Assembly: GCA_041753515.1 (NCBI GenBank)
Contig: JBGSUE010000040.1
Span: 8,290 to 72,289, forward strand
Direction: 5' to 3'
DNA from: Patescibacteria group bacterium
GTDB lineage: Bacteria > Patescibacteriota > Microgenomatia > UBA10105 > UBA927
Length of the DNA: 64,000 nt
Of this stretch, positions 15,318-47,638 are shown one piece after another. Positions within the stretch are counted from its first letter, which is position 1. Each line of letters starts with the position of its first letter. The position numbers and the translations under genes were made by a program. Below the pieces are notes generated by a model that was not told where the DNA came from, made no database searches, and saw only the letters and a list, made by a program, of their open reading frames with translations.

Positions 15318-15785
15318 ATGAAACAGGCGTTTCTCGATTCAAGCGTCCTGTTTACAGCCGTCAACTCCCCAACCGGCGGATCAGCCAAACTGTTTACTCT
15401 CCCAATTCAGCTTGTCACATCAACGTTTGTGTTGACAGAAGTCGAACGAAATGTCCGGGAAAAACTGCTCTCTCATCATCTGGACCGGTATTTCATACTT
15501 GTTAAACAAATGAAGATCGTGGAGGGTAAATCGGATACTAAACTGATTGAAAAAGCCAAAAAAGTCATTGTCGAAAAAGACTCACTTGTTCTTGCAGATG
15601 CCAAACTGTCACATGCTGAGTATCTGATCACTCTGGATCTCAAGTACTTCTTCACTCCACAAGCCCAAAAATTTCTCAAACCCACCCTCATCCTCACCCC
15701 AAAATGCTCATTGAAAAAATTTCCTGACTGTTTTAACGACCGTTTCGGTTTCGGAGTCAGTCAGTTCAGGAAACAGCGGCAGTGA
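15318..15785 (+). CDS. vapC: PIN-domain toxin (VapC-like)
   Basis: Acidic residues at FLDSSVL, TEVE, ADAK and ITLD. Follows the antitoxin by 6 bp. Confidence 0.7.
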   Translation: MKQAFLDSSVLFTAVNSPTGGSAKLFTLPIQLVTSTFVLTEVERNVREKLLSHHLDRYFILVKQMKIVEGKSDTKLIEKAKKVIVEKDSLVLADAKLSHAEYLITLDLKYFFTPQAQKFLKPTLILTPKCSLKKFPDCFNDRFGFGVSQFRKQRQ

Positions 15786-16814
15786 TAAAACTTCCCTGCT
15801 CTGTGCTTCAGACTCGGGGAAGTCGCCTTTTTTGTAGCCTAAATATGCAAATGCTTTCGTCAGGTGGACCGGGACGGGATAATGGACGGCACAGCCAACA
15901 CCATGATCCAAAAGATGTTTCATGAGCTTATCTCGTTTCTTTGTGCGTACAACATAAAGATGATGACTGGATTTGGAGGAAGGTGAAAGGTGAAAGGTAA
16001 AAGGTGAAAGGTCTCCGATATTTGATAATTCCCGGTCATAAAACGAAGCAATTTCCTTCCGTCGTCTATTCCATGCATCCAGATGCCGGAGCTTGATGGA
16101 AAGAATTGCCGCCTGCAGTTCATCCAACCGTGAGACGCCTGATACAACTTCACTTTGGTATCGTGCTTTCTCCCCGTACTGCCGCAGCATTTTTACGCGG
16201 CCGGCTAATGAGGATGAATCCGTCACGATCATTCCCCCGTCCCCCATGGCTCCCAGATTTTTTGACGGATAAAAACTGAAAATTGCCGCGTCTCCCAGTG
16301 TCCCAACTTTTTTCCCCTCAATCACTGCTCCATGCGCCTGTGCGGCATCCTCTAGTAGATATATCTTTCTTTTCGCATTATTGAGTATATTTTGTAGACC
16401 GATAATATCTGCCGGATTGCCATACAGGTGTACCGGAATCACGGCTTTTGTCTTTTCCGTCACACGCTTCGCCAGATCATCGGCAGACATGTTTCCGTCC
16501 GGTCCGCAATCTGCCAACCGTATTGCAGCACCGGAAAGAGCTACCCCAAACGCATTGGGGTATGCATTGGCAGGGATGACAACCTCATCACCAGGCATAA
16601 GTCCGAACGCTTTCAGTACCAACGTGAGGGCATCCGTCCCGCTGGCCACCCCTATTGCATGATAGCTGCCCAGATAATCGGCAAACTCATCTTCAAACAT
16701 TTTCACTCGTGGCCCCAATGTAAAGTACCCATTCTCCATGACCGTATGGACTGCGGATTTCAACTCTGTTTCGATACTTTTATACTGTCTGGTTAATTCA
16801 AATATTGGAATCAT
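15708..16814 (-). CDS. DegT/DnrJ/EryC1/StrS-family sugar aminotransferase (second copy)
   Basis: 368 aa. LLEDAAQAHG...FSFYPSKNLGAMGDGG. Contains a repeat-encoded insert SPFTFHLSPSS. Confidence 0.85.
   Translation of the reverse strand: MIPIFELTRQYKSIETELKSAVHTVMENGYFTLGPRVKMFEDEFADYLGSYHAIGVASGTDALTLVLKAFGLMPGDEVVIPANAYPNAFGVALSGAAIRLADCGPDGNMSADDLAKRVTEKTKAVIPVHLYGNPADIIGLQNILNNAKRKIYLLEDAAQAHGAVIEGKKVGTLGDAAIFSFYPSKNLGAMGDGGMIVTDSSSLAGRVKMLRQYGEKARYQSEVVSGVSRLDELQAAILSIKLRHLDAWNRRRKEIASFYDRELSNIGDLSPFTFHLSPSSKSSHHLYVVRTKKRDKLMKHLLDHGVGCAVHYPVPVHLTKAFAYLGYKKGDFPESEAQSREVLSLPLFPELTDSETETVVKTVRKFFQ
15974..16008. repeat. heptanucleotide tandem array (GGTGAAA)n: ggaggaa ggtgaaa ggtgaaa ggtaaaa ggtgaaa, inside the aminotransferase CDS
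   Basis: Direct reading. Minus strand reads TTTCACC units, the same unit that ends the leuS array. Confidence 0.7.
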
Positions 16815-16821
16815 AATGGTC

Positions 16822-16883
16822 TGTCATTCTGAACAAAGTGAAGAATCTATTCACTAGATCCTTCGCTCACGCTCAGGATGACA
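16822..16883. repeat. inverted-repeat element E2 (TGTCATTCTGAACAAAGTGAAGAATCT ... AGATCCTTCGCTCACGCTCAGGATGACA)
   Basis: 8 bp upstream of the aminotransferase start at 16814. Overlaps the 3' end of the GT2 pseudogene. Confidence 0.7.
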
Positions 16884-17586
16884 AACGGTACAGTATCATA
16901 TCAATAATCGTCGGAATGATGGTTCTAAGGCTTCCTCCCCCCGCCCCTTCCTCATCGGTCCGGGCTTTGTGGGCAATCGTTGTTTCCGCCACACGAAAAC
17001 CGGCACGGACCGCATCGATAATCATCTCCGCATCCACAAATGCGGAACGGGTTGAAAGATCAATCGAATCAATGACTTGTTTTTTTACGAGCCGGATGGA
17101 ATTGACGTCATGAATACTGATCCCGTAGAAGAATTTAAGAAGTGTATTGTAAATTTTCGACTGCCGCAAACGCGTTTCCGGATCCCTGCGGTTCACCCGC
17201 CAGCCGATAATCAAATCTGCATCACCTACAAGTTGTGCCAATGTTTGCAGTTCTTTGGGGTCCAGCTGTCCGTCACCGGGAACGGTAAACAGCCACTCAT
17301 ACCGTCAGGTTTTATAGAGTTCCTGTATGGTTCCCCCATACCCCTGATTCACCGTATGGGTTAAAACAGTAAGTTGTGGGTATTTCTTTAAAAGATTATT
17401 CAATACATCGCCCGTTCCGTCACGGCTTGCATCATTTATCACCATGATTTCGTATGTCCTGGTAATTTTTTTGGCAATAGTATCTGCTTTTAAAATTACT
17501 GATGCAACAGTCTCTTCATCATTGTATGCAGGTATGAGGATTGATACGGACGGAAAACGCATAGGATATTTTCCATATGATATCAT
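16873..17586 (-). pseudogene. DPM1-like GT2 with a single in-frame TGA at 17305-17307 (two track ORFs, 17305-17586 and 16873-17241, share one frame)
   Basis: Continuous translation is ...NQGYGGTIQELYKT[TGA]RYEWLFTVPGDGQLDPKELQTLAQLVGDADLIIGWR... The DxD-region alignment is uninterrupted, so one codon is replaced by a stop. Confidence 0.55.
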
Positions 17587-19263: not shown

Positions 19264-19976
19264 AAACGACCGTCATTTTACCGGCACACAATGAAGAAGA
19301 GGTCATCGGCAAGATGGTTACTATGATCAATTCGCTTTTCGATACATGGGTATCCCAGTTAATTGTCGTTGACGATTGTTCAAGCGACAAAACAGCGCTC
19401 ATAGTGAAAAAACTGCAAAAAAAGGACAATCGCATAGTGCTCATCCAAAGAAATCCTCCAGGAGGTGTCGGGCTTGCACTGCGGGAAGGACTCAAACATG
19501 TAGCAAAATCGTCTGACTGGATACTGACGCTTGATGCGGATTTTACCCGCAATATTCCTGATCTTTATGAATTTTTTGCCAGTACGAAAGGTGTCGATGG
19601 ATTGATAGGATCACGATATATGATGCCAAACTCTCTTGTGAGATACCCGTTTTTCAAAAAAGTTTTCAACAGGCTGTTCCACCTTGCGGTCCGCATTATT
19701 TTCGGCGTCACAAATCATGACCTGACGAACAATTTCAAACTGTATAAAAAATCTATGTACCTGAAGCTCCCGCTGTCTGAAAACAGCTATGCCATAAATG
19801 CCGAAACCGGACTGTATCCCATTCTCATGGGATATAAAATAAAGGAACTTCCCGTCACCTGGTACGCGAGAACTCATGATGAAGGGATTTCAAAATTCAA
19901 GCTTCTGTCATTCGGTCCCGCGTACGGACGGGTCATCCTCAATGCATTCAGGCTTTTTCGACAACGACGAGGATAA
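19260..19976 (+). CDS. GT2 polyprenyl-phosphate sugar synthase (DPM1-like)
   Basis: VILPAHNEEE...VVDDCSSDKT...LDADF...GSRY. ATGA overlap with the upstream GT-C gene. Confidence 0.8.
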   Translation: MKTTVILPAHNEEEVIGKMVTMINSLFDTWVSQLIVVDDCSSDKTALIVKKLQKKDNRIVLIQRNPPGGVGLALREGLKHVAKSSDWILTLDADFTRNIPDLYEFFASTKGVDGLIGSRYMMPNSLVRYPFFKKVFNRLFHLAVRIIFGVTNHDLTNNFKLYKKSMYLKLPLSENSYAINAETGLYPILMGYKIKELPVTWYARTHDEGISKFKLLSFGPAYGRVILNAFRLFRQRRG

Positions 19977-20649
19977 AGGGGCAGAAAATATCCCGTATCC
20001 CGGGTATTTTTTCAACAACACTGTGTAGCTTCGTAACAAACGGATATCTGTTAATGATTTCCGGAGGAAAAAAACCGAATTTCTTCACGATCTTCACGCG
20101 CATACCTGCATCTGTACACCCGGCCAAAAATCGCCCTATATAACTCGTATATGTCCCTTTTTCAATTTCCCACGTCATATCGCGCCTCAGAAGTATGGCT
20201 AAGAGGTGCCAGGGACTGATGGGATTATTTTCCACAAATATCATCCTGCCTCCTTTTTTCAAATGTTTGGATACATTTCGTGCAACCGACTCGACAAAGT
20301 CCGGAACATGATGAAGTATAAAAAAACCGACCACACTATCAAACATGCTCTTTTTTTGCATCTGAATTCGTGTGAGGTCAAGTACTGATGCCTGTATATT
20401 ATTACCTTGAATCTTTTTTTTTAGTGAATCAATTTCATTCTCCGATATATCAGTCGCGAGCACTGTTTGGACATGATGGGATAGCTCAAACGTAAACCTT
20501 CCCTGCCCTGCCCCGACTTCCAGAATAGCATCTTGTTTTGATATCCACTGCTGAATAATACCAACAATAAATCGCGCATAGGGTTTATTACTTTCAGCTT
20601 TCAGATATTCTGGATCTACCGAGTTGTAAAAATTTTTCTGAGTACTCAT
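19948..20649 (-). CDS. class I SAM-dependent methyltransferase
   Basis: Motif I ILEVGAGQGRFT. Confidence 0.7.
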   Translation of the reverse strand: MSTQKNFYNSVDPEYLKAESNKPYARFIVGIIQQWISKQDAILEVGAGQGRFTFELSHHVQTVLATDISENEIDSLKKKIQGNNIQASVLDLTRIQMQKKSMFDSVVGFFILHHVPDFVESVARNVSKHLKKGGRMIFVENNPISPWHLLAILLRRDMTWEIEKGTYTSYIGRFLAGCTDAGMRVKIVKKFGFFPPEIINRYPFVTKLHSVVEKIPGIRDIFCPFILVVVEKA

Positions 20650-36374: not shown

Positions 36375-38018
36375 ATGAAATCCACATATATTGCACGAGC
36401 GTTTCTTCTCACCATTTTTCTGTTTATCATTCACCTCTTTATCATCAATGATTATTCAATCAACTGGGATTTCCACCATGTCTTTTTTGCAGGTCTCTAC
36501 CACACCGGGCATCCTGTCACACGGGATCTCTGGTATGGCCTACCGTTTAACGATCCGGACCCCATGCGGATGGTGGAAACTCCATTCGGTCCGCTCCAAT
36601 CTGCTATTCCGGTATTATCGTATACGACGTTTTTCGAAAAACTGAAACTATTGCCGTTTGACAGCGCGTTTAATCTTCCTGCAGTTCTGGCCGGTTCTGC
36701 CGGAGTTTTTATTCTGTTTCTCTTTCTTCTGGAAACATTCAACCCCGCAACTGCCTGGGCAGGATTTTTATTCCTGGCATTGTATCCCAGGTTTTGGGGA
36801 GATCTTCATACAAACGTTAAGGATATCCCGACTGCCGTTCTGTATACCCTCTCAATCTATCTTGCCTGGCGGGCAGTCAACCGGAGGATTTGGCCGGATA
36901 TCATTGCCGCAGGCATTGCCACAGGCATAACTTTTAATCTCAAAGTAAACGCCATATTCATACCGATCATTATTGCCGTTTGGATCTTGTGGCTTCTTGC
37001 AACACCTGCCAAAAAACACCTGACAAAACCATTCGGGAATGTGTGGGACAACATCATTACTCCCTTCGGTTGTTATGCCATTATTGCAGCCTTGTCCGCT
37101 TTCGGCATTTGGTCTTTGTTCTGGCACAACCCCTATGACCATCTGGCATATCTGATCCGTTTTTTCCAGTACAACACAACGAATATGGAAGTAATTTTAA
37201 ACGGCTTCTGGTACTGCAGCGGTGTCAATATTCCCTGGTATTACCCCTTCTGGTATCTTGCCATCGTCACGCCGTTGCCTACCCTCATATTTGCAGTCAT
37301 AGGTTTTATGCGTCTTTTCTATCTTGCGCTCATTAAAAAACACCCATTATCTTCGCTCATCATCTTTTGGTTTTTTATCCCGCTTATCAGGTTTATGGTT
37401 CCAAATGCCTCCGTTATCGACGGCATCAGGCATTTTGAGGAAGTCATCTTTCCTTGGCTTGCAGCCGCCGCCATCGGTGCAGCATTTCTTTACAATACAT
37501 TTCTTTCAAAGAAATTATCCGTTCTCCGTCTACCGTCTGCCGTCATTCTATCTGTCTATCTTCTATCATCTATTCTCTCCTATCACCCCTACCAGCTCTC
37601 CTATTTCAATGAACTGGTCGGCGGACTTCCCGGAGCAGTCGGAAAATATGACGTCGATTACTGGGGAATATCGCAGAAAAAAGCCGTAGAATGGCTGAAC
37701 GTAAATGCCAAACCCAACGCAAGCATTCACATTATCATGTCTGCAGACGTGGCCGGAAAATATCTCCGGCCTGATCTTCTGGCAAACCTCAATAAAACGG
37801 ATTACGACAGTGCCGATTACGTGGTCGTCCTAAACCGACAATCCTTCTTTTACCGGTTTTTCTACTCGTGGGAATACTTTTTGAGACGGAAAACCGTATA
37901 TGAAGTGAAAGTGAAAGGCGTACCGCTCACCAGCATTTATCAAAATTCACTGGGAAAATTTGAAAGAAGACCTAATTGGTGGCAGGGAGAAGATCCTTGC
38001 ATGAGAAAATACTGGTAA
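36375..38018 (+). CDS. GT-C-fold membrane glycosyltransferase-like protein (PMT/ArnT-like)
   Basis: 547 aa, polytopic, with a C-terminal soluble domain. Confidence 0.5.
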   Translation: MKSTYIARAFLLTIFLFIIHLFIINDYSINWDFHHVFFAGLYHTGHPVTRDLWYGLPFNDPDPMRMVETPFGPLQSAIPVLSYTTFFEKLKLLPFDSAFNLPAVLAGSAGVFILFLFLLETFNPATAWAGFLFLALYPRFWGDLHTNVKDIPTAVLYTLSIYLAWRAVNRRIWPDIIAAGIATGITFNLKVNAIFIPIIIAVWILWLLATPAKKHLTKPFGNVWDNIITPFGCYAIIAALSAFGIWSLFWHNPYDHLAYLIRFFQYNTTNMEVILNGFWYCSGVNIPWYYPFWYLAIVTPLPTLIFAVIGFMRLFYLALIKKHPLSSLIIFWFFIPLIRFMVPNASVIDGIRHFEEVIFPWLAAAAIGAAFLYNTFLSKKLSVLRLPSAVILSVYLLSSILSYHPYQLSYFNELVGGLPGAVGKYDVDYWGISQKKAVEWLNVNAKPNASIHIIMSADVAGKYLRPDLLANLNKTDYDSADYVVVLNRQSFFYRFFYSWEYFLRRKTVYEVKVKGVPLTSIYQNSLGKFERRPNWWQGEDPCMRKYW

Positions 38019-38019
38019 A

Positions 38020-38904
38020 CTACATCGATGAAATAATTCTGCGCACGATATTACCCGCAGTTAGACCGTGATATTTAAGGAGATTTTCGTAGGATGCACT
38101 TATTGGAGTAAAAATATCTTTCAATCCAAACTTTAATAATTTCATAGTCTTATTATTTTCGAGGATATACTCTCCCACTGCGCTCCCGAATCCTCCGGTC
38201 ACGCGGTGCTCTTCAATCGTTGCCGCTATTTTATAAGTCCTGCATATTTCTTTGAGACGTTTTTTATCCAGCGGGGAAATGATAGGAAACCTGAAAATAT
38301 TGGACCGGATACCAATTTTAAACAGTTTTTTCTGTACCTCATCCGCGAGCCATAATTTTGTTCCAGTTACAAGAAAAGCCATGTCTGTATTCTGCAAAGT
38401 CTGACTTTGCAGAACCTGACGGAGAGGATTCGCCTCGATTCTCAAATACGCAGGCGTACTTGTTTTGGCAAGTGATGCAGTAATTTTTTCGGTTTGTTGT
38501 TGATCGTGCGGGGAAACAATACCCATACCCGGAAGCATCCGCATGAGGGCGATATCTTCCATCGAGTGATGCGTAGGACCGGCTTTATTGTACGCAAGTC
38601 CTGCCCCAATCCCCACAATCTTAACGTTCAGGTTCTGCATGACAATATCGGTGCGGATTTGTTCATAGCACCTCATAGATGCAAACGTGGCAATTGAATA
38701 GATAAACGGTTTCCAACCCGCTGCTGCAAGTCCGGCGGCTACGGTCACCAGGTTTGCCTCGGCAACCCCTATGTTGATAAACCGGTCCGGAAATTTTTCG
38801 GTAAACGGCTCCAGAAACCGGTATCCCAAATCTCCGGTTATGAGCATGATTTTACTATCACGCTCTGCTGCTTTGATAAGTCCCCTGATAAACGCTGCTC
38901 TCAT
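38020..38904 (-). CDS. transketolase, C-terminal (pyrimidine-binding) subunit
   Basis: LITGDLGYRF...NIGVAEANLVTVAAGLA...GPTHHSMEDIALMR. Confidence 0.8.
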   Translation of the reverse strand: MRAAFIRGLIKAAERDSKIMLITGDLGYRFLEPFTEKFPDRFINIGVAEANLVTVAAGLAAAGWKPFIYSIATFASMRCYEQIRTDIVMQNLNVKIVGIGAGLAYNKAGPTHHSMEDIALMRMLPGMGIVSPHDQQQTEKITASLAKTSTPAYLRIEANPLRQVLQSQTLQNTDMAFLVTGTKLWLADEVQKKLFKIGIRSNIFRFPIISPLDKKRLKEICRTYKIAATIEEHRVTGGFGSAVGEYILENNKTMKLLKFGLKDIFTPISASYENLLKYHGLTAGNIVRRIISSM

Positions 38905-38921
38905 AATATTTTGTCATGCTG

Positions 38922-38973
38922 AGTGAAACGAAGCATCTCTTCACGAGATTCTTCACTACGTTCAGAATGACTC
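38922..38973. repeat. inverted-repeat element E4 (short variant), 18 bp upstream of the start at 38904
   Basis: tgtcatgctgagtgaaacgaagcatctcttcacgagattcttcactacgttcagaatgact. Confidence 0.6.
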
Positions 38974-38993
38974 AGTATATCCTTTTATCAGCT

Positions 38994-39767
38994 CTATCCT
39001 TGCCTCTTTATATTCAGATTCATTAAATACCTTATAGTGTCCGATGAGCTGGTTTTCAATAATTGATATGCCGTGTCCGAAACCGTGTTGGCAATAATAA
39101 CGCTAGGTGCGTCTTTTTCAAACGGTATACGATGATATGTTTTATTAATCTCTTCAATATTGTGTCCATCAATTGTATGCACGGAAAATCCGAATGACTG
39201 CCATTTTTTTGCAAATGGTTCCAGAGGCGTAATCTCAGACGATGCGCCAAAGCACTGCCATTTGTTGTAATCCACGATGACGGTCAGATTGTCCAATTTC
39301 ATGCGTGATGCAAAAATAGCGGCTTCCCACACACTCCCCTCCCCGCATTCCCCATCGCTGATTAAGACAAAAACGTGCGGAGGTTTTTTATTAATTTTTT
39401 TATATCCCAGTGCTATACCAGAAGCAAATGCCAAGCCATGTCCGAGACTCCCTGATGTCATTTCAATACCGGGATCTTTCATTTCAGGATGCTCGCACAA
39501 TCCACCGGTATCAGCTCCGAACGAATCAATGAGTTTTTTTCCCATGATTTTTTTGTGATACAGCACAGAGTAGAGCGCTGCTGCCGCATGGCCTTTGGAC
39601 AGGATAAACCGGTCTTTTTTCACATCCAGTCTTCCGGCATACAAAACTGCCACAAGATCGGATATCGATAATGCCGATCCGATGTGCCCTGTATGGGCAT
39701 GATAAGAAATATCAAGAGAAGTCAACGCAACCTCATGACAAAATTTCTGTATATTTTTTTTCATCAT
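38994..39767 (-). CDS. transketolase, N-terminal (TPP-binding) subunit; 3' end likely frameshifted at a T-run near 39085-39090
   Basis: SKGHAAAALY...GSLGHGL...ISDGECGEGSVWEA. After ...VIIANTV the conserved ending FGHGISIIENQLIGHYK... continues in the -1 frame. Confidence 0.75.
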   Translation of the reverse strand: MMKKNIQKFCHEVALTSLDISYHAHTGHIGSALSISDLVAVLYAGRLDVKKDRFILSKGHAAAALYSVLYHKKIMGKKLIDSFGADTGGLCEHPEMKDPGIEMTSGSLGHGLAFASGIALGYKKINKKPPHVFVLISDGECGEGSVWEAAIFASRMKLDNLTVIVDYNKWQCFGASSEITPLEPFAKKWQSFGFSVHTIDGHNIEEINKTYHRIPFEKDAPSVIIANTVSDTAYQLLKTSSSDTIRYLMNLNIKRQG

Positions 39768-39802
39768 AATTCGTAATTCCTAATTCATAATTCGTAATTC
39801 TT
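39768..39802. repeat. (AATTCRT)n heptamer array: aattcgt aattcct aattcat aattcgt aattctt
   Basis: Abuts the tktN start and overlaps the last codons (ELRIMN) and the stop of the epimerase. Confidence 0.7.
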
Positions 39803-40730
39803 GTCTGTACCATTCAATTGTTTTCTTCAGACCTTCCTCGAGTAAAATTTTTGCCTTCCACCCGAGGACTTTTTCCGATTTTTCCGTACTCGCCTTCCAG
39901 TGATACGCATCCCATGCGCGCCCGGGATATGCATTTTTTACTATTTTTGATTGTGATCCAGCTTTACAAACTACTTTTTTTGCCAATTCATAGATCGTCG
40001 TTTCCTTCCCGGTGCCCAAATTAAACACTTCCCCATCCGCCCGTGATCCGGCTGATATGGTTTTCACTATTGCGCGGACAATATCATCCGTATGGATAAA
40101 ATCCCGTGCTTCGCGTCCAGTGGCAAGTTTAATGGGATTGTTTTGCAAGGCTGATTCTATAACACTTCGCACCAATCGTCCTTCTTCCTCAAACGGCCCG
40201 TAAATATTAAAAAACCTTAGAACAGTAATGGGTTTTTTGTGCCGCGTGGCATAATACTGGCACAAATGTGTTGCCGACGCTTTTGTAACCGCATAGAGGC
40301 TGTTTGGCATAATACGGTCATTCTCCATCATTGCCGTATCGCGGTATCCGTATTCGCTGGAACTTCCCGCAACAATAAATCGTTTATATGGAATATCCAC
40401 ACTCGCATCCAGAAGTCTCTTGAGTGTATTGATATTCACTTCAATCATTTTTGCCCACTCATCCTGTGATGGATATGCCCCGAATGCCGCAAGATGAATG
40501 ATTGCGTAGGGATGTGTATTTTGAAACAATTTTTCCAGTTGTTTTTCGTCTTTGAGAATACCTGTATAAAGTGTAATTTTTGACAGAAGATGACGAATTC
40601 TCCACACGTCTCCGCCGGACCGCACCGCAACATGAACATCCCACCCTCTTTGTACAAAATACTGAGTAACACTTGCTCCCACAAAACCTGCCCCGCCGGT
40701 AATAAAGACACTTTTTTTCATGTCACTCAA
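39780..40730 (-). CDS. NAD-dependent epimerase/dehydratase
   Basis: VFITGGAGFVGASV. YAVTK is YxxxK. Confidence 0.85.
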   Translation of the reverse strand: MSDMKKSVFITGGAGFVGASVTQYFVQRGWDVHVAVRSGGDVWRIRHLLSKITLYTGILKDEKQLEKLFQNTHPYAIIHLAAFGAYPSQDEWAKMIEVNINTLKRLLDASVDIPYKRFIVAGSSSEYGYRDTAMMENDRIMPNSLYAVTKASATHLCQYYATRHKKPITVLRFFNIYGPFEEEGRLVRSVIESALQNNPIKLATGREARDFIHTDDIVRAIVKTISAGSRADGEVFNLGTGKETTIYELAKKVVCKAGSQSKIVKNAYPGRAWDAYHWKASTEKSEKVLGWKAKILLEEGLKKTIEWYRQELRIMN

Positions 40731-41823
40731 TAGACTTCACACGGGACAGTGCATGCATGATCCTGTTTCTGGCATTCGGAAGATAGGTGTTGTGCTTGAG
40801 CATATACCGCTCACGGATGAGCGCTTTGACCAGTGAGATCCGCAGATAATAGAGCCAAAAACGGAGGTCAAAATCTTCCGGCAGAGTTCTGATGCTTTTA
40901 TATCCGGAAAGAAATACATCAAACCACACTTCATGTTCAAAACACCCGGATCCGTAGTATGCGATATCATATACCGGATCGCCTGCCAGGCAATCTTCCC
41001 AATCAATAATAGCTGCAACTTTTCCGCCATTCACAAATGTATTATGATTTGCCACGTCTCCATGTAAGATTGACGGCTCAAACGGGGCAATCCGTGAAAA
41101 TTTCGAAAGCTGTGTTGCTATCTCCGTTGCCTCCTTTTGGGTGATAACCCCTACCAGACTGCAGGATTCGATGTGCGAAACCATATTGAGAATAAGGTAC
41201 GACATCCATGTTTCATGAAGTCCGTGTGGTTTTCCGTCAATGATGCTTTGGATTGAAATAGGCCCGAAACGGGACGTCTTCATTTCATGAATACTGGCGA
41301 TAAACGAACCCAATTGACCAAAAAGTGAAACGGGGATATCCGTATGGAGACTTCGGTCAAACAGCGTTTCTCCGGGCAGATCTTCAACAATCTGATAGTC
41401 AAACGGCACTAACGACCGTGTTGTATCAATGTCAATGATGGTCACATGAGGAAGGGATTTTTTTTCAAGCTCCAGCATCATCCAATGCTCGGTATAAAAC
41501 GATAATTCCCGGTAAAAATCTCCGGCAGCATTAATCCGTATAACGCGGCTGCCTTTATCGGTTTTTACCCTATAAACATAATGGAGAGTTCTGCGTGCAA
41601 GTTCGTCAATTTTTTCAATGTTTTCATTATGGCGGTCGGAAAAAATTTTCCGGATATCCGGTGTGTGGACATCAAGATGGGTATTTAAGATATCCACGGG
41701 ATATACCCCGTCAACTTTCGTAAAAAAGAATGTTTTCTGATACGCGGTAAACCGGTCAACTTCGTTTTTATCGATTGCGGACGCAGATATGTCCATATCA
41801 TATGTTATCGTACCCCAAAACAC
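40723..41823 (-). CDS. APH/choline-kinase-family phosphotransferase (candidate sugar kinase)
   Basis: ILHGDVANHNTFV...IIDWEDCLAGDPVYDIA is the APH Brenner motif plus the DxE metal loop. Confidence 0.7.
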   Translation of the reverse strand: MFWGTITYDMDISASAIDKNEVDRFTAYQKTFFFTKVDGVYPVDILNTHLDVHTPDIRKIFSDRHNENIEKIDELARRTLHYVYRVKTDKGSRVIRINAAGDFYRELSFYTEHWMMLELEKKSLPHVTIIDIDTTRSLVPFDYQIVEDLPGETLFDRSLHTDIPVSLFGQLGSFIASIHEMKTSRFGPISIQSIIDGKPHGLHETWMSYLILNMVSHIESCSLVGVITQKEATEIATQLSKFSRIAPFEPSILHGDVANHNTFVNGGKVAAIIDWEDCLAGDPVYDIAYYGSGCFEHEVWFDVFLSGYKSIRTLPEDFDLRFWLYYLRISLVKALIRERYMLKHNTYLPNARNRIMHALSRVKSIE

Positions 41824-42745
41824 GGTTAATTACCATGGACAGTGATTTTATTCGATTGTATTCACTTCTTGTCAGTTCTTTCACCGTTTGTATGTTTGCT
41901 TTTTCTGTCGGAATTTCAATTGTGCCCCACGGATACTGATGCTCCAGTCTTTTTCCGTTCCATGACGGATATGTCATGGTAGGGCTGTACGGAATACCCA
42001 ATTTTTTACACAGTTTTTTGAAAAATGCCTCTTTATCCTCCACCATATCCTCATACCGCACCACGAGCATATTCCTGGAATATGTATCGGCAAAAGAAAG
42101 TGCTGCCAGCTGAACCATACTCCATGTGCGTACATATCTGTCCAGTGAATACGGCACGGGGCGACGCTTAGTTTCTGCATACGCCGCATACGGATTGCGC
42201 ACAATATGCAGCATAATTGCATCGGGAAAATCGGAAACCATTTTATCCGTATCAACAGCTATGATCGGACTGTATCCGACAAATATCTTTTCTTTACCGG
42301 TTTTTTTGTATGTACTCCACGCTGCAAACGTTGAGCGGTAGTATGCTTCCACAAGATTTTTTCGGGTTCGGTCTTTCCCTTGCATCCAGGCGACAAATGC
42401 CTTTTTCCGGTCGGTATTCGTGCACCCCAGTTCAGACACATCCCGGAATTTAGAAACATGGCGCGTATTGACCATCACTTTAAATTCTTCGTCTATGATT
42501 GCATCATAATCACTGTCCACGGTGCCTTCTATCCCGAATTCCGGCCAGCGGTATTTTTGCGGAAAACAGCTCGTCATCCAATCGGCAATTTTAAATGTTC
42601 CGGGTTGGGATTCGTACGGATACACAAAAAGTTCCGGATGGGTGTCCAAATGCCGCTGAAGTGTGTTTCCACCGTTTTCGTACATGGCAGAAATCATGAC
42701 AAAACTGAATTTTTTCGGACCGAAATCGTACGTCTTTGTGCTCAT
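41798..42745 (-). CDS. sulfotransferase-family protein (candidate glycan sulfotransferase)
   Basis: N-terminal KFSFVMISAMYENGGNTLQRHLDTHPELF is PSB-loop-like. HIVRNPYAAYAETKRR resembles the RNP 3'-phosphate-binding motif. Confidence 0.45.
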   Translation of the reverse strand: MSTKTYDFGPKKFSFVMISAMYENGGNTLQRHLDTHPELFVYPYESQPGTFKIADWMTSCFPQKYRWPEFGIEGTVDSDYDAIIDEEFKVMVNTRHVSKFRDVSELGCTNTDRKKAFVAWMQGKDRTRKNLVEAYYRSTFAAWSTYKKTGKEKIFVGYSPIIAVDTDKMVSDFPDAIMLHIVRNPYAAYAETKRRPVPYSLDRYVRTWSMVQLAALSFADTYSRNMLVVRYEDMVEDKEAFFKKLCKKLGIPYSPTMTYPSWNGKRLEHQYPWGTIEIPTEKANIQTVKELTRSEYNRIKSLSMVINRVLGYDNI

Positions 42746-42785
42746 TGCCCATACTCCTTTCAATTTTTATATTTCGATAATAGTA

Positions 42786-43553
42786 TCACAGACGTTTCAC
42801 AGCTCTCAAGGCCAAAAACAGAGGAATTTCCTTTCGTGCCCTGTTTTCCATATTTCCGTCTTTTCCCACGCTCTCCTTATCTGATGTCCATTCGTGAAAT
42901 GCATCAACAAAAAGCCCTGCGTCCCTGAGCATCGAAAAATAATCTGACAGTGGCCGATGAAATGTCCATGTGACAGGCGATTGTTTTTTACCGGGATGCA
43001 TGGAGATGGGAATGGACAGCGGACTCATATACCGGAAAATTTTTCTGTACTGGAGTTTATTTGCATCATCTATTCCCCATCCGCTCTGGCGCGGAATCCT
43101 GAAACACGGATGATTCATGACAATGACAAAAGACCCGCCGGGTTTTAACAACTTCGCGGCATTCCCGATCACTTTTTCCGGGTCTTCGATATTCTGAAGA
43201 GCCAGTATAATTGCGGCATGGGAATATATTCCATCCGGCAAAGAACCTGTGACATCATATACTTGATATGTATGCGCGCGATCTTTCTGGCGGGCAATAC
43301 GGATGAGATCGGGCGCGATATCATATCCTGTATAGGAAACACCTTTGGGTATCCCTCTTCCGAGAATTCCCTCTCCGCAGCCCAAATCCAATAAAGAATC
43401 ACCAGATTTCAAATTTAGTAATTTCAGAACACCGGAAAGTATGACATGCTCATGAAAATACTGCCCCTTTTTCCCCATACTCTCCCCATACCACGTACTC
43501 ACCTTATTCCATGATGTTTGTTTCATATGTGTAATCGAAATACTATCATCCAC
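42786..43553 (-). CDS. class I SAM-dependent methyltransferase
   Basis: Motif I LLDLGCGEGILG. The start may be M10, in which case the ORF ends at 43526. Confidence 0.7.
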   Translation of the reverse strand: MDDSISITHMKQTSWNKVSTWYGESMGKKGQYFHEHVILSGVLKLLNLKSGDSLLDLGCGEGILGRGIPKGVSYTGYDIAPDLIRIARQKDRAHTYQVYDVTGSLPDGIYSHAAIILALQNIEDPEKVIGNAAKLLKPGGSFVIVMNHPCFRIPRQSGWGIDDANKLQYRKIFRYMSPLSIPISMHPGKKQSPVTWTFHRPLSDYFSMLRDAGLFVDAFHEWTSDKESVGKDGNMENRARKEIPLFLALRAVKRL

Positions 43554-44194
43554 CTCACCATTTCCCAGACGGTTTTGAGGCGGGTTGTGGATGATCCGGT
43601 ATCGCGAATCAGCGATGGAGCCGGAATTTCATACCATGTCAGTCCCCTCTTTTTCAAGGCAAGAAGAAGCTCAAGATCGACAGCAATATTGTTGGCCGTC
43701 AGCGGTATGGACTTCAGCAGTTTTGTTTCCAGAAGTTTGGGTGTTGCGTTCACGTCTTGTGTATCAATTCCAAACAGTATTCTTGCGAGAATATTATATA
43801 TCCGGGAATTCAGGAGTCTCGTCCCGTTTTCGCGTGTTGTGCGCCAAATTTTTACCAATGCTGCATGTTTTCTGATTTCATACAATTTTTCGATATATTC
43901 AGGATCAATCTGACCATCAGACACCATGTAGCACGTATACATTCCACCCGCTTTTTGGATGCCTTTCCTCACCGCATTCCCCCATCCGATCTGTGATTGC
44001 ATAACTACAAGTTCTTTAATTTTTTTTTGCAGACTTTTCAAAACAGACAAAGTAATATCAGTTGATCCGTTTTCCATACAGATAATTTCATACGAAATTT
44101 TCAGTTTTTTGAGAACCGCAATAATTGTTTTCAGATTTTTTTCTATCCCTGCCGACTCATTATGGACGGGAAGGATGACGGTTAAATCCACCAT
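43523..44194 (-). CDS. GT2 polyprenyl-phosphate sugar synthase (short DPM1-like)
   Basis: LTVILPVHNESAGI...MENGSTD...SDGQ. Confidence 0.7.
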   Translation of the reverse strand: MVDLTVILPVHNESAGIEKNLKTIIAVLKKLKISYEIICMENGSTDITLSVLKSLQKKIKELVVMQSQIGWGNAVRKGIQKAGGMYTCYMVSDGQIDPEYIEKLYEIRKHAALVKIWRTTRENGTRLLNSRIYNILARILFGIDTQDVNATPKLLETKLLKSIPLTANNIAVDLELLLALKKRGLTWYEIPAPSLIRDTGSSTTRLKTVWEMVRWMIVFRLHI

Positions 44195-44239: not shown

Positions 44240-44268
44240 TTGATTTAAATATAACTATAGGATAAAAT
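44240..44268 (+). promoter_or_regulatory. promoter TTGATT-N17-TAAAAT, 6 nt upstream of the ATG at 44275 (leaderless-type)
   Basis: Direct reading: ttgatt taaatataactatagga taaaat cctccc ATG. Confidence 0.5.
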
Positions 44269-44274
44269 CCTCCC

Positions 44275-45636
44275 ATGACAATTGAAAAAGAACACGGATC
44301 TGTGGAATTTATGAATCTGCCTCACACAGTTGAATCCTGGATTATGCATCCGCCTGCTGGCGGATCACTGGGAATTGAAACATTTACAATAGAAACCCCA
44401 ATTCGACCGGTTGAAATCACCATAAAACAGGCAGTCAAAGCCGAGCAGGTTGGAAATCCTCTCAAAGCCGGGTGCGGCGACGTTGCAGCAGTATTTCACA
44501 CATCTTACCCGCTTGCTTATCCCTCGACACCAGATAATTGTGCCCATATTACCGGTATCGTATGCAGGGATTTTCTGTCCCACGCGCCATCTGATTTACC
44601 ATTCTGGGAGAAAATGAAATCCGATCCTAAAATTTTGGATCATGCCGAAAGTAATGGTGTACCTATACTGAAAACTGACAGCATCGACTCCTGGACCGCT
44701 GGAAAATTGAGAACACCCAATGATTACGGTCAACTATTGATGAGTTCTCTACCATTTGACCATATGATCAATGTGGCACGCAATCCCAGATATTTCCCTT
44801 ATCTACATAAACTTGTTGAATTGGAATCGATACGTTATCAGGGCGGTGATATATCTCTGCGCACCTGCATCGACATGACTAAGAGAGTGGAACGTGTTGA
44901 TGATATTGTGCTTGACCCAATTGATAAAGTTATAACGCATGCAGTAAATACTCTTAAACATGTACCGTCTGTTGGATTTGGCGGTGACATCCAAACTCTA
45001 GCCTTTATCATCCAGATGCCTGGCAACCAGGGCGCTATACTCGCACTTCTGCGAAGCAACGCAGACGAGGTGACACGGATTAAACCGGCATCAGATCTAC
45101 CTTGGCTTCTTTTTGCTGACAATACAAATTTTCTCATGGAAGATCAGCGTATAAATTCCGAACATCGTCCCGAACATACGGATTTCAACTACAAGGCAGC
45201 AGGGTATTGGATGACAGGAGCCGGTGGCTGGAGACGGCGACGAATGATTCCTTCCGTAGCCAATAAAGGATTGCCTCGCTATACATTGTCCATTTTTTCG
45301 ATCCCTGCTGATTCAGACATGCAAATCGAAACGGTTACCGACGGTATGATATTTTCCCCCTTTGAATTAAACCGTTCTTATGGACAACTTGAAGATCAAA
45401 AAAGTCTTTTTCATATTCTTCATCGATACCTTCAATCAGGCAATCGCGAGTCATATCAGCGACAAATTACATTACTGCAAAGAATAAAACCTGAGGGTTG
45501 GATTATCAGGAATCCTGATGTTATGAATCTCTCGACATTAGTCAAAGCTGAAGAATATATTAGTTTTCTGCAGATAAAAAAGGATCTGGAACAGCCGTTT
45601 GATGATGCGACATTTATCGGCGCAAAAGTAGTATAA
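44275..45636 (+). CDS. hypothetical protein (453 aa); weak resemblance to a 2OG-Fe(II) oxygenase core
   Basis: No confident domain. HTD at EHRPEHTDFN and RYTLSIFSIPADSDMQIE resemble an HxD motif and the R-x-S 2OG-binding motif. Confidence 0.5.
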   Translation: MTIEKEHGSVEFMNLPHTVESWIMHPPAGGSLGIETFTIETPIRPVEITIKQAVKAEQVGNPLKAGCGDVAAVFHTSYPLAYPSTPDNCAHITGIVCRDFLSHAPSDLPFWEKMKSDPKILDHAESNGVPILKTDSIDSWTAGKLRTPNDYGQLLMSSLPFDHMINVARNPRYFPYLHKLVELESIRYQGGDISLRTCIDMTKRVERVDDIVLDPIDKVITHAVNTLKHVPSVGFGGDIQTLAFIIQMPGNQGAILALLRSNADEVTRIKPASDLPWLLFADNTNFLMEDQRINSEHRPEHTDFNYKAAGYWMTGAGGWRRRRMIPSVANKGLPRYTLSIFSIPADSDMQIETVTDGMIFSPFELNRSYGQLEDQKSLFHILHRYLQSGNRESYQRQITLLQRIKPEGWIIRNPDVMNLSTLVKAEEYISFLQIKKDLEQPFDDATFIGAKVV

Positions 45637-47638
45637 GGCAGCAAACAGTAACCAAGGATATTGCTAAACCCGTCAAAAACGATTCAGGTACAAATGTAAA
45701 TTCTACCACATGTTCACCCCCGGGAACTTCTACTGCACGGAAGGCAAGATTGTTTGTGATGACTGGTACCCGTTTGCCGTCGATGTACGCCCGCCAACCC
45801 GGATACATGACTTCACTTGTGGCAAGATAGGCGTTGCATGGAGAGTTGAGCGTTAAGCGTACAGAGTTAAGCGTTATGCGATCTTGGATAATTTTCGAAG
45901 TACTAACGTCTTCACAATCATTTGAAGTTTTATCCGTAACAAGAAGTGTTGTCTGCGGATCATACTTCCGTGACCGGATTGCGGCGGCGACTTCTTGCCT
46001 GTCTGAAAAAGTTTTCGCCTCCCCCGCAATATAAAACCGCGGTAGGACAGCCGAATTCTCATACAGACGTAGTCCGTAAGTGTCACTTGTATAAAGGAGT
46101 TTATACTGACTATTGCCTATTAACGTATCATACGCAAACGGAACAAGAACATACTGGACGTTAAGAAAATTTACATATGGAGATGTCATGTCCACATATG
46201 GAATTTGGACGTTGTGCGATAAAATACTCGACGTTTCACTTCCGTTTGACGCATCAATAAAATCATAATAATTTGAAAGCATCGACGGATCGTACCCAGT
46301 TGCCGACTCAACTCCATACACTATGCCAGCATCAAAATCGAATGCATTACGCTCTTGAATCCAGTTTGCATAATTCGGGAGTATCCGTCCGTTTTTTAAA
46401 GATCGTATTGTTGAATCATATGTCAACTCCGGCAAAGGTTTGATTTCAATCAGATGTTTTGCAGGGATATACAGTTCTATAAACAAAATACAGACAAACA
46501 GACCACGCAGCCAACTTTTCCGCACAAGCGAAAATCCTGTTCCTGCAAGACACGATACCGCAAAAACGGACAATACCATGTGACGCGCCGGAAAACGGAT
46601 ATGCCTATATAACGGCATCAGTTCGTATAGTATTTTATTTCCGTCTACTGGGCTGTTTGGTCCAAATGAAATCCAAAGTGCAAACAATGCGATGAGTGCA
46701 AATCCGATAGTACGCTTTTTTATTAATGCATACACGGCCAAAAACAGTGCTGTAACACTGAAAAAGAAAGCTTGTTCATGATAGTTTGGCGGAGGCCCTA
46801 CAAATGTTGTTTGATCTCCTAAGATAAACGGACTAAACAATTGTTGAAGCGATGAGGGGACAAGCGATCCCACGCTCACCCACTCATACGGAAAATCGGT
46901 ACTGCGCACACTTTTTCCCATAAATTCCGCCTGCGGCAACAACTGGAATGCGGACAGCAATAGCGCAAGACACAAAGATATCGACATAACGACAAAAGAT
47001 TTCACTGATTTTTGCAGAAGCATGAGAATACCGACGGCTTCGAGTGTAAACATAGCGACAGTCTGATATCCTGCAAGAATCTGAAAAGCAAGAGATACTG
47101 CTGCCAGAAGAATATGTTTCCGTGTCGGTGTACGAAACAGTAACATGAAACTACCAATGACAAACGGTATAAGCGCGCTTGCCGCCACTGTATCTGCGTG
47201 TCCGGCCCAAGTGCGGGCCAGAAAATACTGGGACAATCCGAACGCCAGTGATGCACCGATTGCACTTACCGTATCAAGCCGGAGGACTTTTTTTGAAAAC
47301 CAGTACATTGCCCAGAGGGCGATAAATATATGTATCGCAAACGTCCAACCGTATGCCGCATTGAACGGCATGAAAAAAAATTTCCAGTTGACCGGATAAA
47401 AAGCGGCAACAGACGGATTTGCGGCATACGGCATGCCGGAAAATACATACGGATTCCACCACGGGAATTGTCCGGATAGAATGCTGCCCACAAAATACCT
47501 GCGGAAAAAACCGTAGGAGCGCCACATGTCATCGGCAAACAGTGCATACCCGTCGGGGGGGAATAAAACCTGACCAAATAAAAACAGAACAACCGAGACA
47601 AACAGAAGAAAAATAATTATAGATTCTTTTATCCACAT
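45614..47638 (-). CDS. YfhO-family GT-C membrane glycosyltransferase
   Basis: GQFPWWNPYVFSGMPYAANP. C-terminal periplasmic domain MYPGWRAYIDGKRVPVITNNLAFRAVEVPGGEHVVEF is typical of YfhO. Confidence 0.75.
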   Translation of the reverse strand: MWIKESIIIFLLFVSVVLFLFGQVLFPPDGYALFADDMWRSYGFFRRYFVGSILSGQFPWWNPYVFSGMPYAANPSVAAFYPVNWKFFFMPFNAAYGWTFAIHIFIALWAMYWFSKKVLRLDTVSAIGASLAFGLSQYFLARTWAGHADTVAASALIPFVIGSFMLLFRTPTRKHILLAAVSLAFQILAGYQTVAMFTLEAVGILMLLQKSVKSFVVMSISLCLALLLSAFQLLPQAEFMGKSVRSTDFPYEWVSVGSLVPSSLQQLFSPFILGDQTTFVGPPPNYHEQAFFFSVTALFLAVYALIKKRTIGFALIALFALWISFGPNSPVDGNKILYELMPLYRHIRFPARHMVLSVFAVSCLAGTGFSLVRKSWLRGLFVCILFIELYIPAKHLIEIKPLPELTYDSTIRSLKNGRILPNYANWIQERNAFDFDAGIVYGVESATGYDPSMLSNYYDFIDASNGSETSSILSHNVQIPYVDMTSPYVNFLNVQYVLVPFAYDTLIGNSQYKLLYTSDTYGLRLYENSAVLPRFYIAGEAKTFSDRQEVAAAIRSRKYDPQTTLLVTDKTSNDCEDVSTSKIIQDRITLNSVRLTLNSPCNAYLATSEVMYPGWRAYIDGKRVPVITNNLAFRAVEVPGGEHVVEFTFVPESFLTGLAISLVTVCCLILLLRR

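Follow-up and report, generated by a model that had tools for sequence, protein, structure and literature searches.

Operon and conserved cassette

Seven consecutive minus-strand open reading frames form one tightly packed operon from position 44194 down to 38020 of the window, the 64-kb stretch of DNA analysed here. Operon organisation is expected from the distances between the seven genes, which are, in order, −31, 40, 1, 1, 12 and about 57 nt (a negative value is an overlap). Each of the seven proteins has a Pfam match above the gathering cut-off, and none reaches an NCBIfam equivalog cut-off. The gene boundaries are the same in a second, independent assembly of this organism (L001; 99.97% identity over 7703 bp, zero gaps). 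Reading frames, Pfam matches and these boundaries agree on the seven-gene operon that a sequence-only reading had described here, and the "CPR-like" host named in that reading is plausible, the nearest relatives being Gottesmanbacteria and Levyibacteriota. Upstream of the first gene, in an 80-bp divergent intergenic region, lies a promoter-like site (TTGTCA-16-TATAGT; 44254..44281, minus strand). It is the top-scoring match on the minus strand (10/12), but only suggestive, since the region as a whole has no more such sites than expected by chance.

The operon is the local version of a widespread cassette without characterised members. Its sulfotransferase-like (ST-like) protein is encoded in 441 species-representative genomes from many phyla. 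Gene content was counted in the 47 loci that have 6 kb or more of flanking sequence on each side. An SDR is present in 43, the split transketolase in 39 and the short GT2 in 33 of them, and all 47 have either an APH-type kinase or a DUF4915 protein, never both. Wherever the gene order of a locus was mapped individually, this partner adjoins the ST-like gene. Eight of the 47 loci have the ST-like gene and its partner but no transketolase, and the ST module is therefore independent of branching. The class I SAM-dependent methyltransferase of the operon (42786..43553, minus strand; 255 aa; Pfam Methyltransf_23/11/12) is present as the earlier reading had it, but is lineage-specific and no member of the conserved cassette; among the related loci, the organism's own copy is its sole BLAST match covering 60% or more of the query.

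The split transketolase

The two genes at the operon end encode a split transketolase. The C subunit (38020..38904, minus strand), with the Pyr and C-terminal domains, matches Transket_pyr with 107.8 and Transketolase_C with 54.4 bits; its closest solved structure is 6yaj (E 1e-44). The N subunit, with the ThDP/PP domain (minus strand; Transketolase_N, 106 bits), is closest to the Carboxydothermus split transketolase 6yak (E 3e-50). Its gene apparently lacks 1 nt near 39076. Through the resulting frameshift the open reading frame as sequenced (39767-38994, 257 aa) stops at 38994 and loses a catalytic His. Addition of one G gives an open reading frame of 268 aa (38962..39767) in which the catalytic His is back and which aligns end-to-end with relatives at 59–60% identity; the alternative frame of this region encodes 'GISIIENQLIGHYKVFNESEYKEARIELI'. 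The database record holds the truncated form only. Unless the frameshift is an assembly error, the branching step may be inactive and the pathway may be broken in this organism.

In fold, split architecture and ThDP-binding and catalytic residues, the cassette pair is like the Carboxydothermus hydrogenoformans enzyme (6yak/6yaj); E411, H26, H66, H100, H261 and H473 (numbered as in E. coli TktA) are kept in the cassette transketolases. Unlike in canonical transketolase, three residues that bind the sugar substrate are replaced: Gly stands at H461 and Ile at F434 in all 49 cassette transketolases, and D469 is other than Asp in 48 of 49, with Ala, Gln, Asn, Met or Leu at this position in the subfamily. 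The same signature is seen in 140–146 of the 150 best representatives from a library of 1.84 billion proteins. The sugar-phosphate-binding His and the Asp that binds the C2-OH of the acceptor are thus gone throughout the subfamily. The C subunit of the window retains E411, H473 and R358 and has Gly in place of H461, Ile in place of F434 and Ala in place of both D469 and R520.

Some prokaryotes use split transketolases in central metabolism, the closest solved structure is a split transketolase, and in small CPR genomes functionally unrelated genes are often adjacent. Nevertheless, it is extremely improbable that the pair is the central pentose-phosphate enzyme of the organism and lies beside glycan genes by chance. 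The substitutions are common to the whole subfamily, the linkage to ST, SDR and GT2 genes is kept in Planctomycetota, Bacteroidota and Solirubrobacterales, which have large genomes, the window proteins score far below the cut-offs of the NCBIfam transketolase models, and one related locus carries two transketolase pairs. The residues replaced across the subfamily support the assignment of the pair as a dedicated glycan-pathway paralogue, predicted from sequence, and agree with the earlier placing of the enzyme outside central metabolism.

Keto-sugar context

The partner of the transketolase is an extended SDR of the NDP-sugar epimerase/decarboxylase/dehydratase type (39780..40721, minus strand; 313 aa; Pfam Epimerase, 162 bits). 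Its closest solved structures are the UDP-hexose 4-epimerase of T. maritima (4zrm) and the UDP-GlcA 4-epimerase MoeE5, and both the GSSSEYG and the YxxxK motif are conserved among 47 cassette SDRs. The earlier name, epimerase, stands for the Pfam family but not as an equivalog; none of the SDRs in the window reaches such a cut-off. The window operon has no nucleotidyltransferase and no clear 4,6-dehydratase. Directly upstream in a related locus (L002) are a glucose-1-P cytidylyltransferase (TIGR02623, 343 bits; cut-off 300) and a CDP-glucose 4,6-dehydratase-like SDR, and another locus (L004) has a dTDP-glucose 4,6-dehydratase-like SDR. A Paenibacillus plasmid has the gene order rfbF-rfbG-MT-[SDR::TktN]-TktC-TylF-like MT, in which SDR and N subunit are fused inside an rfbF/rfbG cluster, and one C subunit is fused to a domain of the NDP-hexose C-methyltransferase type. 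Taken together, the substitutions in the transketolase, the CDP/dTDP-4-keto-6-deoxyhexose pathway context and the SDR fusion support two-carbon branching of a keto sugar, and the earlier link of split transketolases to two-carbon branched sugars is strengthened by them.

An enzyme acting on sugar phosphates would instead make a heptulose or another ketose phosphate, and the APH kinase and a nucleotidyltransferase would activate the product, so that a chain-extended sugar or alditol would result, not a branched NDP-sugar. In favour of this, the subfamily retains R358 and mostly has Lys or Arg at R520, which leaves the channel entrance with two cationic residues; it also retains the His residues with which true transketolases bind the donor, a kinase is present and some loci have a nucleotidyltransferase. 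We consider this route improbable, however: the phosphate- and C2-OH-binding residues are lost, the nucleotidyltransferase scores above the cut-off for a glucose-1-P cytidylyltransferase and precedes a 4,6-dehydratase-like SDR, the cassette has no conserved sugar-phosphate isomerase or phosphatase, and the SDR::TktN fusion lies inside an rfbF/rfbG cluster.

For miharamycin and amipurimycin biosynthesis, split-gene transketolases have been proposed to transfer a hydroxyacetyl unit to a keto sugar, but no in vitro demonstration exists of a transketolase-type enzyme branching a keto sugar (PMC12247030). There, too, a two-subunit ThDP enzyme of the transketolase family lies in a sugar-tailoring cluster beside an oxidoreductase thought to make the keto acceptor (PMC12247030). 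The systems, compared by description and alike in that neither is proven in vitro, differ in setting: secondary-metabolite clusters, with all 13 predicted examples in Streptomyces (PMC12247030), versus loci for glycosylation of the cell envelope, spread over CPR and many more phyla. CDP/NDP-4-keto-deoxysugars are branched by ThDP enzymes of the YerE type (decarboxylase superfamily) and the AviB1/AviB2 type (alpha-keto acid dehydrogenase E1-like), the products being yersiniose, erwiniose and the sugars of avilamycin and aldgamycin (PMC12247030). These enzymes, too, form a ThDP-dependent C-C bond, and the NDP-4-keto-6-deoxyhexose on which they act is supplied by a nucleotidyltransferase together with a 4,6-dehydratase; upstream rfbF/rfbG-like genes are also found in loci related to the window. 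The YerE-type and AviB1/AviB2-type enzymes belong to the decarboxylase or E1 branch, whereas the cassette has a transketolase. The kept donor-site His residues suggest that its donor is a dihydroxyethyl (hydroxyacetyl) unit and not a pyruvate-derived acetyl.

The sulfotransferase-fold protein and its partner

The ST-like protein (41798..42745, minus strand; 315 aa), identical to P0001, matches Pfam Sulfotransfer_3 with 51.8 bits, above the gathering cut-off, in its C-terminal half only (residues 137-260). A sulfotransferase fold is found, as the sequence-only reading had proposed, and that reading is not refuted on this count; sulfation, however, is not established. R183 (in R183-N-P), the Arg for the 3'-phosphate, is kept together with a nearby invariant Thr and Arg, and the invariant E45 is one residue away from the position of the TPST catalytic base. 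These features are consistent with a genuine PAPS-dependent O-sulfotransferase, whose product would be a polyprenyl-phosphate-linked sugar carrying sulfate, methyl and phosphate groups, but we regard this as doubtful. The N-terminal half is not matched by the Sulfotransfer_3 model. The family-invariant 5'-PSB loop, M-Y-E-N-G-G-N-T, is non-canonical: unlike in TPST and the CurM/OLS-type PAPS sulfotransferases of Sulfotransfer_3, its Lys/Arg, conserved to our knowledge in characterised PAPS sulfotransferases, is replaced by an invariant Glu (E23), which aligns with the catalytic Arg of TPST. The search for PAPS biosynthesis genes was negative, with cysC, cysD and cysN absent from both the window and 84 related loci, and genomes with a member of the family include those of CPR, Micrarchaeota and Babeliales, groups that often lack sulfate activation. 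Also unlike in TPST and the CurM/OLS type is the obligatory APH or DUF4915 partner, which a PAPS-fed enzyme would not need.

The partner in the window is a small-molecule kinase of the APH/fructosamine-kinase family (40723..41796, minus strand; 357 aa; APH 80.8 bits, Fructosamin_kin 30.9 bits), which starts 1 nt past the stop of the ST-like gene. It contains 'LHGDVANHN' and 'IDWED', and its closest solved structure is hygromycin-B 4-O-kinase (E 9e-11). The strict pairing with an adjoining partner, the loss of the donor-loop Lys/Arg with the 3'-phosphate Arg kept, a conservation unusually high at about 50% identity across phyla, which points to a small conserved substrate, and the restriction of the cytidylyltransferase to APH-type loci (18 vs 0) would all fit a protein that is no sulfotransferase but forms, with its partner, another group-transfer or elimination module. 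The kinase might, for example, make a nucleotide-linked donor with a 3'-phosphate, by analogy with the PAPS-like 3'-phospho-CDP-amidate that Campylobacter uses in the synthesis of O-methyl phosphoramidate. Still, such a module is unlikely. DUF4915 looks like a beta-propeller and not a kinase, which makes a common donor produced by either partner improbable, and the single diagnostic position that differs between APH-type and DUF4915-type ST-like proteins agrees with a partner whose action is independent of the ST step.

The glycosyltransferase and the lipid carrier

The first gene of the operon (43523..44194, minus strand) encodes a short DPMS/ArnC/GtrB-like GT2 of 223 aa (Glycos_transf_2, 64 bits). 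Its AF2 model (pLDDT 93.4) has as top Foldseek matches the DPMS of P. furiosus (5mlz, TMq 0.86), ArnC and GtrB. With these enzymes it shares the GT-A catalytic domain (TMq 0.75-0.86), the C-terminal R..G.S motif and the Asp/Gln metal site, D93 and Q95 aligning with the second Asp and the Gln of 'DADLQ' in ArnC; YfhO and PMT_2 genes are adjacent. In contrast to them, the first DXD Asp is replaced by Val and the 'DD' of the nucleotide-binding motif is lost ('DDGS' reads 'ENGS'). In most family members outside the CPR clade 'YTNSART' stands in place of the DXD, both Asp are gone, and the donor chemistry may therefore be unusual. The GT2 sequence has no hydrophobic or transmembrane segment and no membrane anchor; a 223-aa GT2 of this kind is closer to eukaryotic DPM1 than to GtrB or ArnC. 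Structurally, the model supports a polyprenyl-phosphate glycosyltransferase, in line with the loading of polyprenyl phosphate earlier ascribed to a DPM1-like GT2.

Proposed pathway

The observation made from the sequence alone is thus borne out, its interpretation only in part. The operon probably produces an unusual branched sugar for the cell surface. We put at roughly 45% the probability that the cassette tailors a nucleotide-activated sugar and hands the product to a lipid carrier for surface glycosylation. From domain and fold assignments, cassette conservation, active-site substitutions and genomic context we infer every chemical step of the following route. An NDP-hexose would be converted to a keto form, a CDP- or dTDP-4-keto-6-deoxyhexose in relatives with their own genes for it, supplied here by the cassette SDR or a neighbouring SDR. 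The dedicated split ThDP enzyme, with its remodelled acceptor pocket, would then add a two-carbon hydroxyacetyl unit to the keto sugar, and the adjacent SDR would either make the ketone or reduce the new side-chain ketone. Further decoration may come from the APH-type kinase by O-phosphorylation, from the lineage-specific methyltransferase and from the sulfotransferase-fold enzyme, with PAPS or another 3'-phosphonucleotide-linked group as donor. The short DPMS-like GT2 would transfer the product to polyprenyl phosphate. Among the points against this route are that no enzyme of the cassette is characterised, that the GT2 has no membrane anchor and that the operon has no nucleotidyltransferase.

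After flipping, a neighbouring GT-C enzyme would attach the sugar to an envelope acceptor. In three-component glycosylation of the CsbB/YfhO type a polyprenyl-phosphate glycosyltransferase works with a GT-C partner, and two GT-C membrane proteins flank the operon. The YfhO-family protein (45614..47638, minus strand; Pfam YfhO; 8 hydrophobic segments) would be the extracytoplasmic user of the polyprenyl-phosphate-linked sugar; a possible alternative user is the PMT_2-family protein (36375..38018, plus strand; PMT_2, 41 bits; 7 hydrophobic segments), whose gene is convergent with the operon end. A YfhO gene also adjoins the short GT2 gene in a Gottesmanbacteria locus (L003).

Organization of the operon

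The operon comprises seven open reading frames on the minus strand (38020-44194), and the sequence-only reading called these genes correctly. All products score above the gathering threshold of their Pfam families. In the order of the genes these are a short GT2 glycosyltransferase (Glycos_transf_2; 44194-43523), a class I methyltransferase (43553-42786), a sulfotransferase-like (ST-like) protein (Sulfotransfer_3; 42745-41798), an APH kinase (APH; 41796-40723), an extended SDR of the epimerase type (Epimerase; 40721-39780) and the two subunits of a split transketolase, TktN (Transketolase_N; 39767-38994 as sequenced) and TktC (Transket_pyr and Transketolase_C; 38904-38020). The genes overlap or are separated by 1-57 nt. 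Their starts were adopted from L001, a second, independent assembly of this organism, which is 99.97% identical to the window over 7.7 kb without gaps. None of the seven proteins reached an NCBIfam equivalog cut-off and, therefore, their functions are not fixed by the family names. Upstream of the GT2 gene, the 80-bp divergent region holds the highest-scoring promoter-like site, although such sites are no more numerous there than expected by chance. On the other side of this region, a 453-aa protein is encoded divergently (44275-45636, plus strand), also in L001; it has neither a hydrophobic segment nor a Pfam match.

Genes for YfhO and PMT_2 glycosyltransferases of the GT-C type are found on either side of the operon, and the whole window (5000-61000) is a glycosylation island. 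Encoded there are over 15 polytopic membrane proteins with lengths of 400-690 amino acids (PMT_2, YfhO and several that Pfam does not assign), five or more extended SDRs as well as several GT2s and methyltransferases, with many SDR/GT2 pairs. An operon embedded in such a large island is further evidence that reduced CPR organisms invest heavily in surface glycans.

The split transketolase

The nearest solved structures of TktN and TktC are the two chains of the split transketolase from Carboxydothermus. For comparison of single residues, the window protein was aligned with TktA of E. coli, whose numbering is used here. The residues for ThDP/Mg binding and cofactor activation (D155, N185, E411 and H66) are kept in the window protein, as they are in 49-52 homologues from the cassette, that is, the same gene set in related loci. 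Of the residues that bind the sugar phosphate or the acceptor (H461, D469, R520 and R358), R358 alone is kept. The phosphate-binding H461 is replaced by glycine and F434 by isoleucine in 49 of 49 cassette enzymes, the acceptor-binding D469 is not an aspartate in 48 of 49, and R520 is an alanine in the window protein and mostly lysine or arginine in the other cassette enzymes. Searching 1.84 billion representatives exhaustively retrieved 1399 relatives at E ≤ 1e-30, and the best 150 of these have the same signature.

Because these 150 relatives and the cassette enzymes carry substituted substrate residues, the transketolase does not group with the enzymes of central metabolism; such a grouping was the outcome that the sequence-only reading had named beforehand as speaking against it. 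The H461/D469/F434 signature extends across the subfamily. A role as central-metabolism transketolase is thus rejected by active-site residues and by synteny. The scores against NCBIfam NF004559 (185.6 bits for TktN, 145.9 bits for TktC) are below the cut-off of 488, a rough comparison, the model being full-length. A heptose-type route via sugar phosphates is unlikely as well: the cassette has no conserved isomerase or phosphatase, and its nucleotidyltransferase is a glucose-1-phosphate cytidylyltransferase.

As sequenced, the TktN reading frame stops early, at 257 amino acids, due to an apparent 1-nt deletion near 39076 (39060-39090, minus strand). The conserved C terminus of the relatives, including the histidine corresponding to H261, is encoded in a second frame of the window. 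Addition of one G to the run near 39076 gives a TktN of 268 amino acids that is 59-60% identical to the cassette homologues from end to end. This catalytic histidine is absent from the window frame and present in the repaired frame and in 52 of 52 relatives. Exact-protein look-ups returned no record matching TktC, the truncated TktN or the SDR, and an independent Logan contig ends at 39958, short of the site. The truncated TktN is the only form on record and stems from the NCBI contig alone. It may reflect real decay or an assembly error.

Further members of this Gly-type subfamily occur in other arrangements. The TktC subunits P0146, P0252 and P0263 are fused to a zinc alcohol dehydrogenase, a domain of the NDP-hexose C-methyltransferase type and another methyltransferase, and one related locus (L010) has two separate split-transketolase pairs within 5 kb (15380-17136 and 19519-20532). 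On plasmid p5 of Azospirillum argentinense Az39 (L089, 5958-16065), a Gly-type split transketolase lies amid two B12-binding proteins of the radical SAM type, a kinase, an oxidoreductase and a methyltransferase. The kinase encoded there has no BLAST match to the APH kinase of the window at E ≤ 1e-4; the locus is a different, likewise uncharacterised, context of the subfamily.

Nucleotide-sugar context and possible substrate

Genes of NDP-keto-sugar pathways were seen in three of the related contexts. The Isosphaeraceae locus (L002) starts with a glucose-1-phosphate cytidylyltransferase scoring above the cut-off, followed by an SDR similar to CDP-glucose 4,6-dehydratase, and the Levyibacteriota locus (L004) has an SDR similar to dTDP-glucose 4,6-dehydratase. 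A plasmid of the cultured bacterium Paenibacillus cellulosilyticus carries rfbF, rfbG, a methyltransferase, a fusion of SDR and TktN, TktC, a TylF-like methyltransferase and glycosyltransferases. The fusion protein of 635 amino acids is annotated as an SDR and is encoded beside TktC in the rfbF/rfbG (CDP-glucose) cluster (L088, 10097-12927; NZ_CP054609.1). Near the operon of the window, generic SDRs alone were found. Altogether, the context of the cassette points to nucleotide-sugar chemistry, and the Paenibacillus cluster offers a usable experimental entry point.

In the SDR of the operon, the motifs TGGAGFVG, GSSSEYG and YAVTK correspond to the GxxGxxG site for NAD and the Ser...YxxxK triad, and they are kept in 47 cassette SDRs. 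By these motifs, the enzyme is an extended SDR of the NDP-sugar type; as it reaches no specific equivalog cut-off, it may be an epimerase, an oxidase/decarboxylase or a reductase.

[quoted passage not shown] All 13 predicted cases are from Streptomyces, and carboligation onto a ketone acceptor has been shown for no transketolase, with none demonstrated in vitro (PMC12247030). If the transketolase described here does branch keto sugars, a subfamily of more than 1000 clusters at 50% identity would gain its first such physiological role outside Streptomyces. It would also suggest that many uncultured lineages display a C-branched sugar not known so far.

Distribution and partners of the cassette

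The ST-like protein has 1194 relatives in the database, typically with about 50% identity, and no match in a plasmid collection. The 441 species-representative genomes that carry its gene are metagenome-assembled without exception and come from CPR lineages, Planctomycetota, Bacteroidota, Melainabacteria, Armatimonadota, Solirubrobacterales, Babeliales and one archaeon of the Micrarchaeota, among others. The best 80 loci were inspected in detail, and neighbours were counted in the 47 with at least 6 kb on either side of the ST-like gene. An extended SDR is nearby in 43 of these 47 loci, a split transketolase in 39 and a short GT2 in 33; the methyltransferase is not conserved. With no transketolase in eight of these 47, the ST module forms a unit that can stand apart from it.

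An either/or rule governs the remaining partner in all 47 loci with full flanks (from L005-L084): the ST-like gene is accompanied by an APH kinase (26 loci) or by a DUF4915/TIGR03032 protein (21 loci), with no locus having both and none having neither. The glucose-1-phosphate cytidylyltransferase occurs only with the APH type (18 loci versus 0, counted over all 80), and a single diagnostic position separates the ST-like proteins of the two types. It is doubtful that APH and DUF4915 are analogous enzymes, the latter giving only weak hints of a beta-propeller-like structure. Apparent fusions of the ST-like protein with DUF4915 or APH were rejected as well; these long reading frames are start-codon artefacts of high-GC sequences.

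Nothing relevant was found in the literature on the gene combination, on a split transketolase together with polysaccharide, or on DUF4915/TIGR03032. The cassette is large, highly conserved, unstudied and open to direct test. Four of its loci (L005, L008, L010 and L011), one of them a 954-kb contig, are titled 'uncultured Gammaproteobacteria'; they have the CPR-type cassette with ST-like proteins 54-70% identical to that of the window, and these labels may be wrong.

The sulfotransferase-like protein and the kinase

The sequence-only reading had proposed a sulfated sugar and had named the sulfotransferase fold as a check. The fold is indeed present, with a Sulfotransfer_3 match above the gathering score. 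The Arg/Ser motif for the 3'-phosphate gives a mixed picture: R183 aligns with the arginine of tyrosylprotein sulfotransferase (TPST) that binds this phosphate, but aspartate or glutamate occupies the serine position. Thr192, which comes after it, and Arg195 do not vary within the family. However, sulfation itself is not supported. The Pfam match is limited to the C-terminal half of the protein, with the donor-loop region outside. In this region, an invariant M-Y-E-N-G-G-N-T loop aligns without gaps with V-P-R-S-G-T-T of TPST, but a glutamate sits on the catalytic arginine of the latter, and the catalytic lysine or arginine of the 5'-phosphosulfate-binding loop (PKSGTT or PRSGTT type) was not found in the family. 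Homologues of cysC, cysD and cysN were found neither in the 64-kb window nor in 84 related loci, each about 20 kb long, which is weak negative evidence on a source of PAPS (sat/cysDN plus cysC). Finally, a simple PAPS model does not account for the strict either/or choice between APH and DUF4915 as partner. That the ST-like protein is an agent of sulfation is possible, albeit unproven, and we consider it rather doubtful.

The partner in the window is a small-molecule kinase of the APH/choline-kinase type by its Pfam score (80.8 bits, cut-off 23.2) and by the motifs LHGDVANHN and IDWED, which correspond to the catalytic HGDxxxxN and D-x-E; its nearest structure is APH(4)-Ia. One could speculate that the ST-fold protein forms, with either of its two mutually exclusive partners, a new PAPS-free group-transfer system, which might use, for example, a 3'-phospho-nucleotide-linked donor made by the kinase. 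Acting with a ketone-accepting transketolase, this system would give rise to a new class of branched, charged sugars bound to polyprenyl phosphate, in DPANN archaea as well as in bacteria ranging from CPR to Planctomycetota; we regard this as quite improbable. We view the cassette as a variant of ThDP-dependent sugar branching, uncharacterised so far, that is joined to a non-canonical module of the sulfotransferase fold, and nothing in it breaks a rule. With its glutamate in the donor loop and its strict either/or partner, the ST-fold protein is a well-defined, highly conserved target for the question whether a sulfotransferase fold was recruited to other chemistry.

The glycosyltransferase and a proposed pathway

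The model of the GT2 has a pLDDT of 93.4, and ranks 1-23 of a Foldseek search are dolichyl-phosphate mannose synthase (DPMS), ArnC and GtrB, with a TMq of up to 0.86 (DPMS); its sequence matches are GtrB and DPMS as well. Compared with D-A-D-L-Q of ArnC, the enzyme has V-S-D-G-Q, in which the second aspartate and the glutamine are kept but the first aspartate is lost. It has 223 amino acids, no hydrophobic segment and no membrane anchor that we could find, and its alignment to ArnC stops at the start of the transmembrane region of the latter.

Context and structure thus support the general idea, put forward in the sequence-only reading, of a branched and heavily tailored sugar on a lipid carrier. 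We infer all chemical steps of the following pathway. SDR chemistry would provide an NDP-keto sugar, to which the transketolase would add a two-carbon hydroxyacetyl branch, with the adjacent SDR acting before or after. Further decoration of the sugar may come from the kinase, from the methyltransferase and from the ST-fold enzyme, before the DPMS-like GT2 would load it onto polyprenyl phosphate and a neighbouring GT-C enzyme would transfer it outside the membrane.

Most cassette GT2s from outside the CPR clade have YTNSART in place of the DXD motif of polyprenyl-phosphate glycosyltransferases (for example L065, 8090-8782, and L041, 8149-8832), which suggests that these could be metal-independent or otherwise unusual GT-A enzymes.
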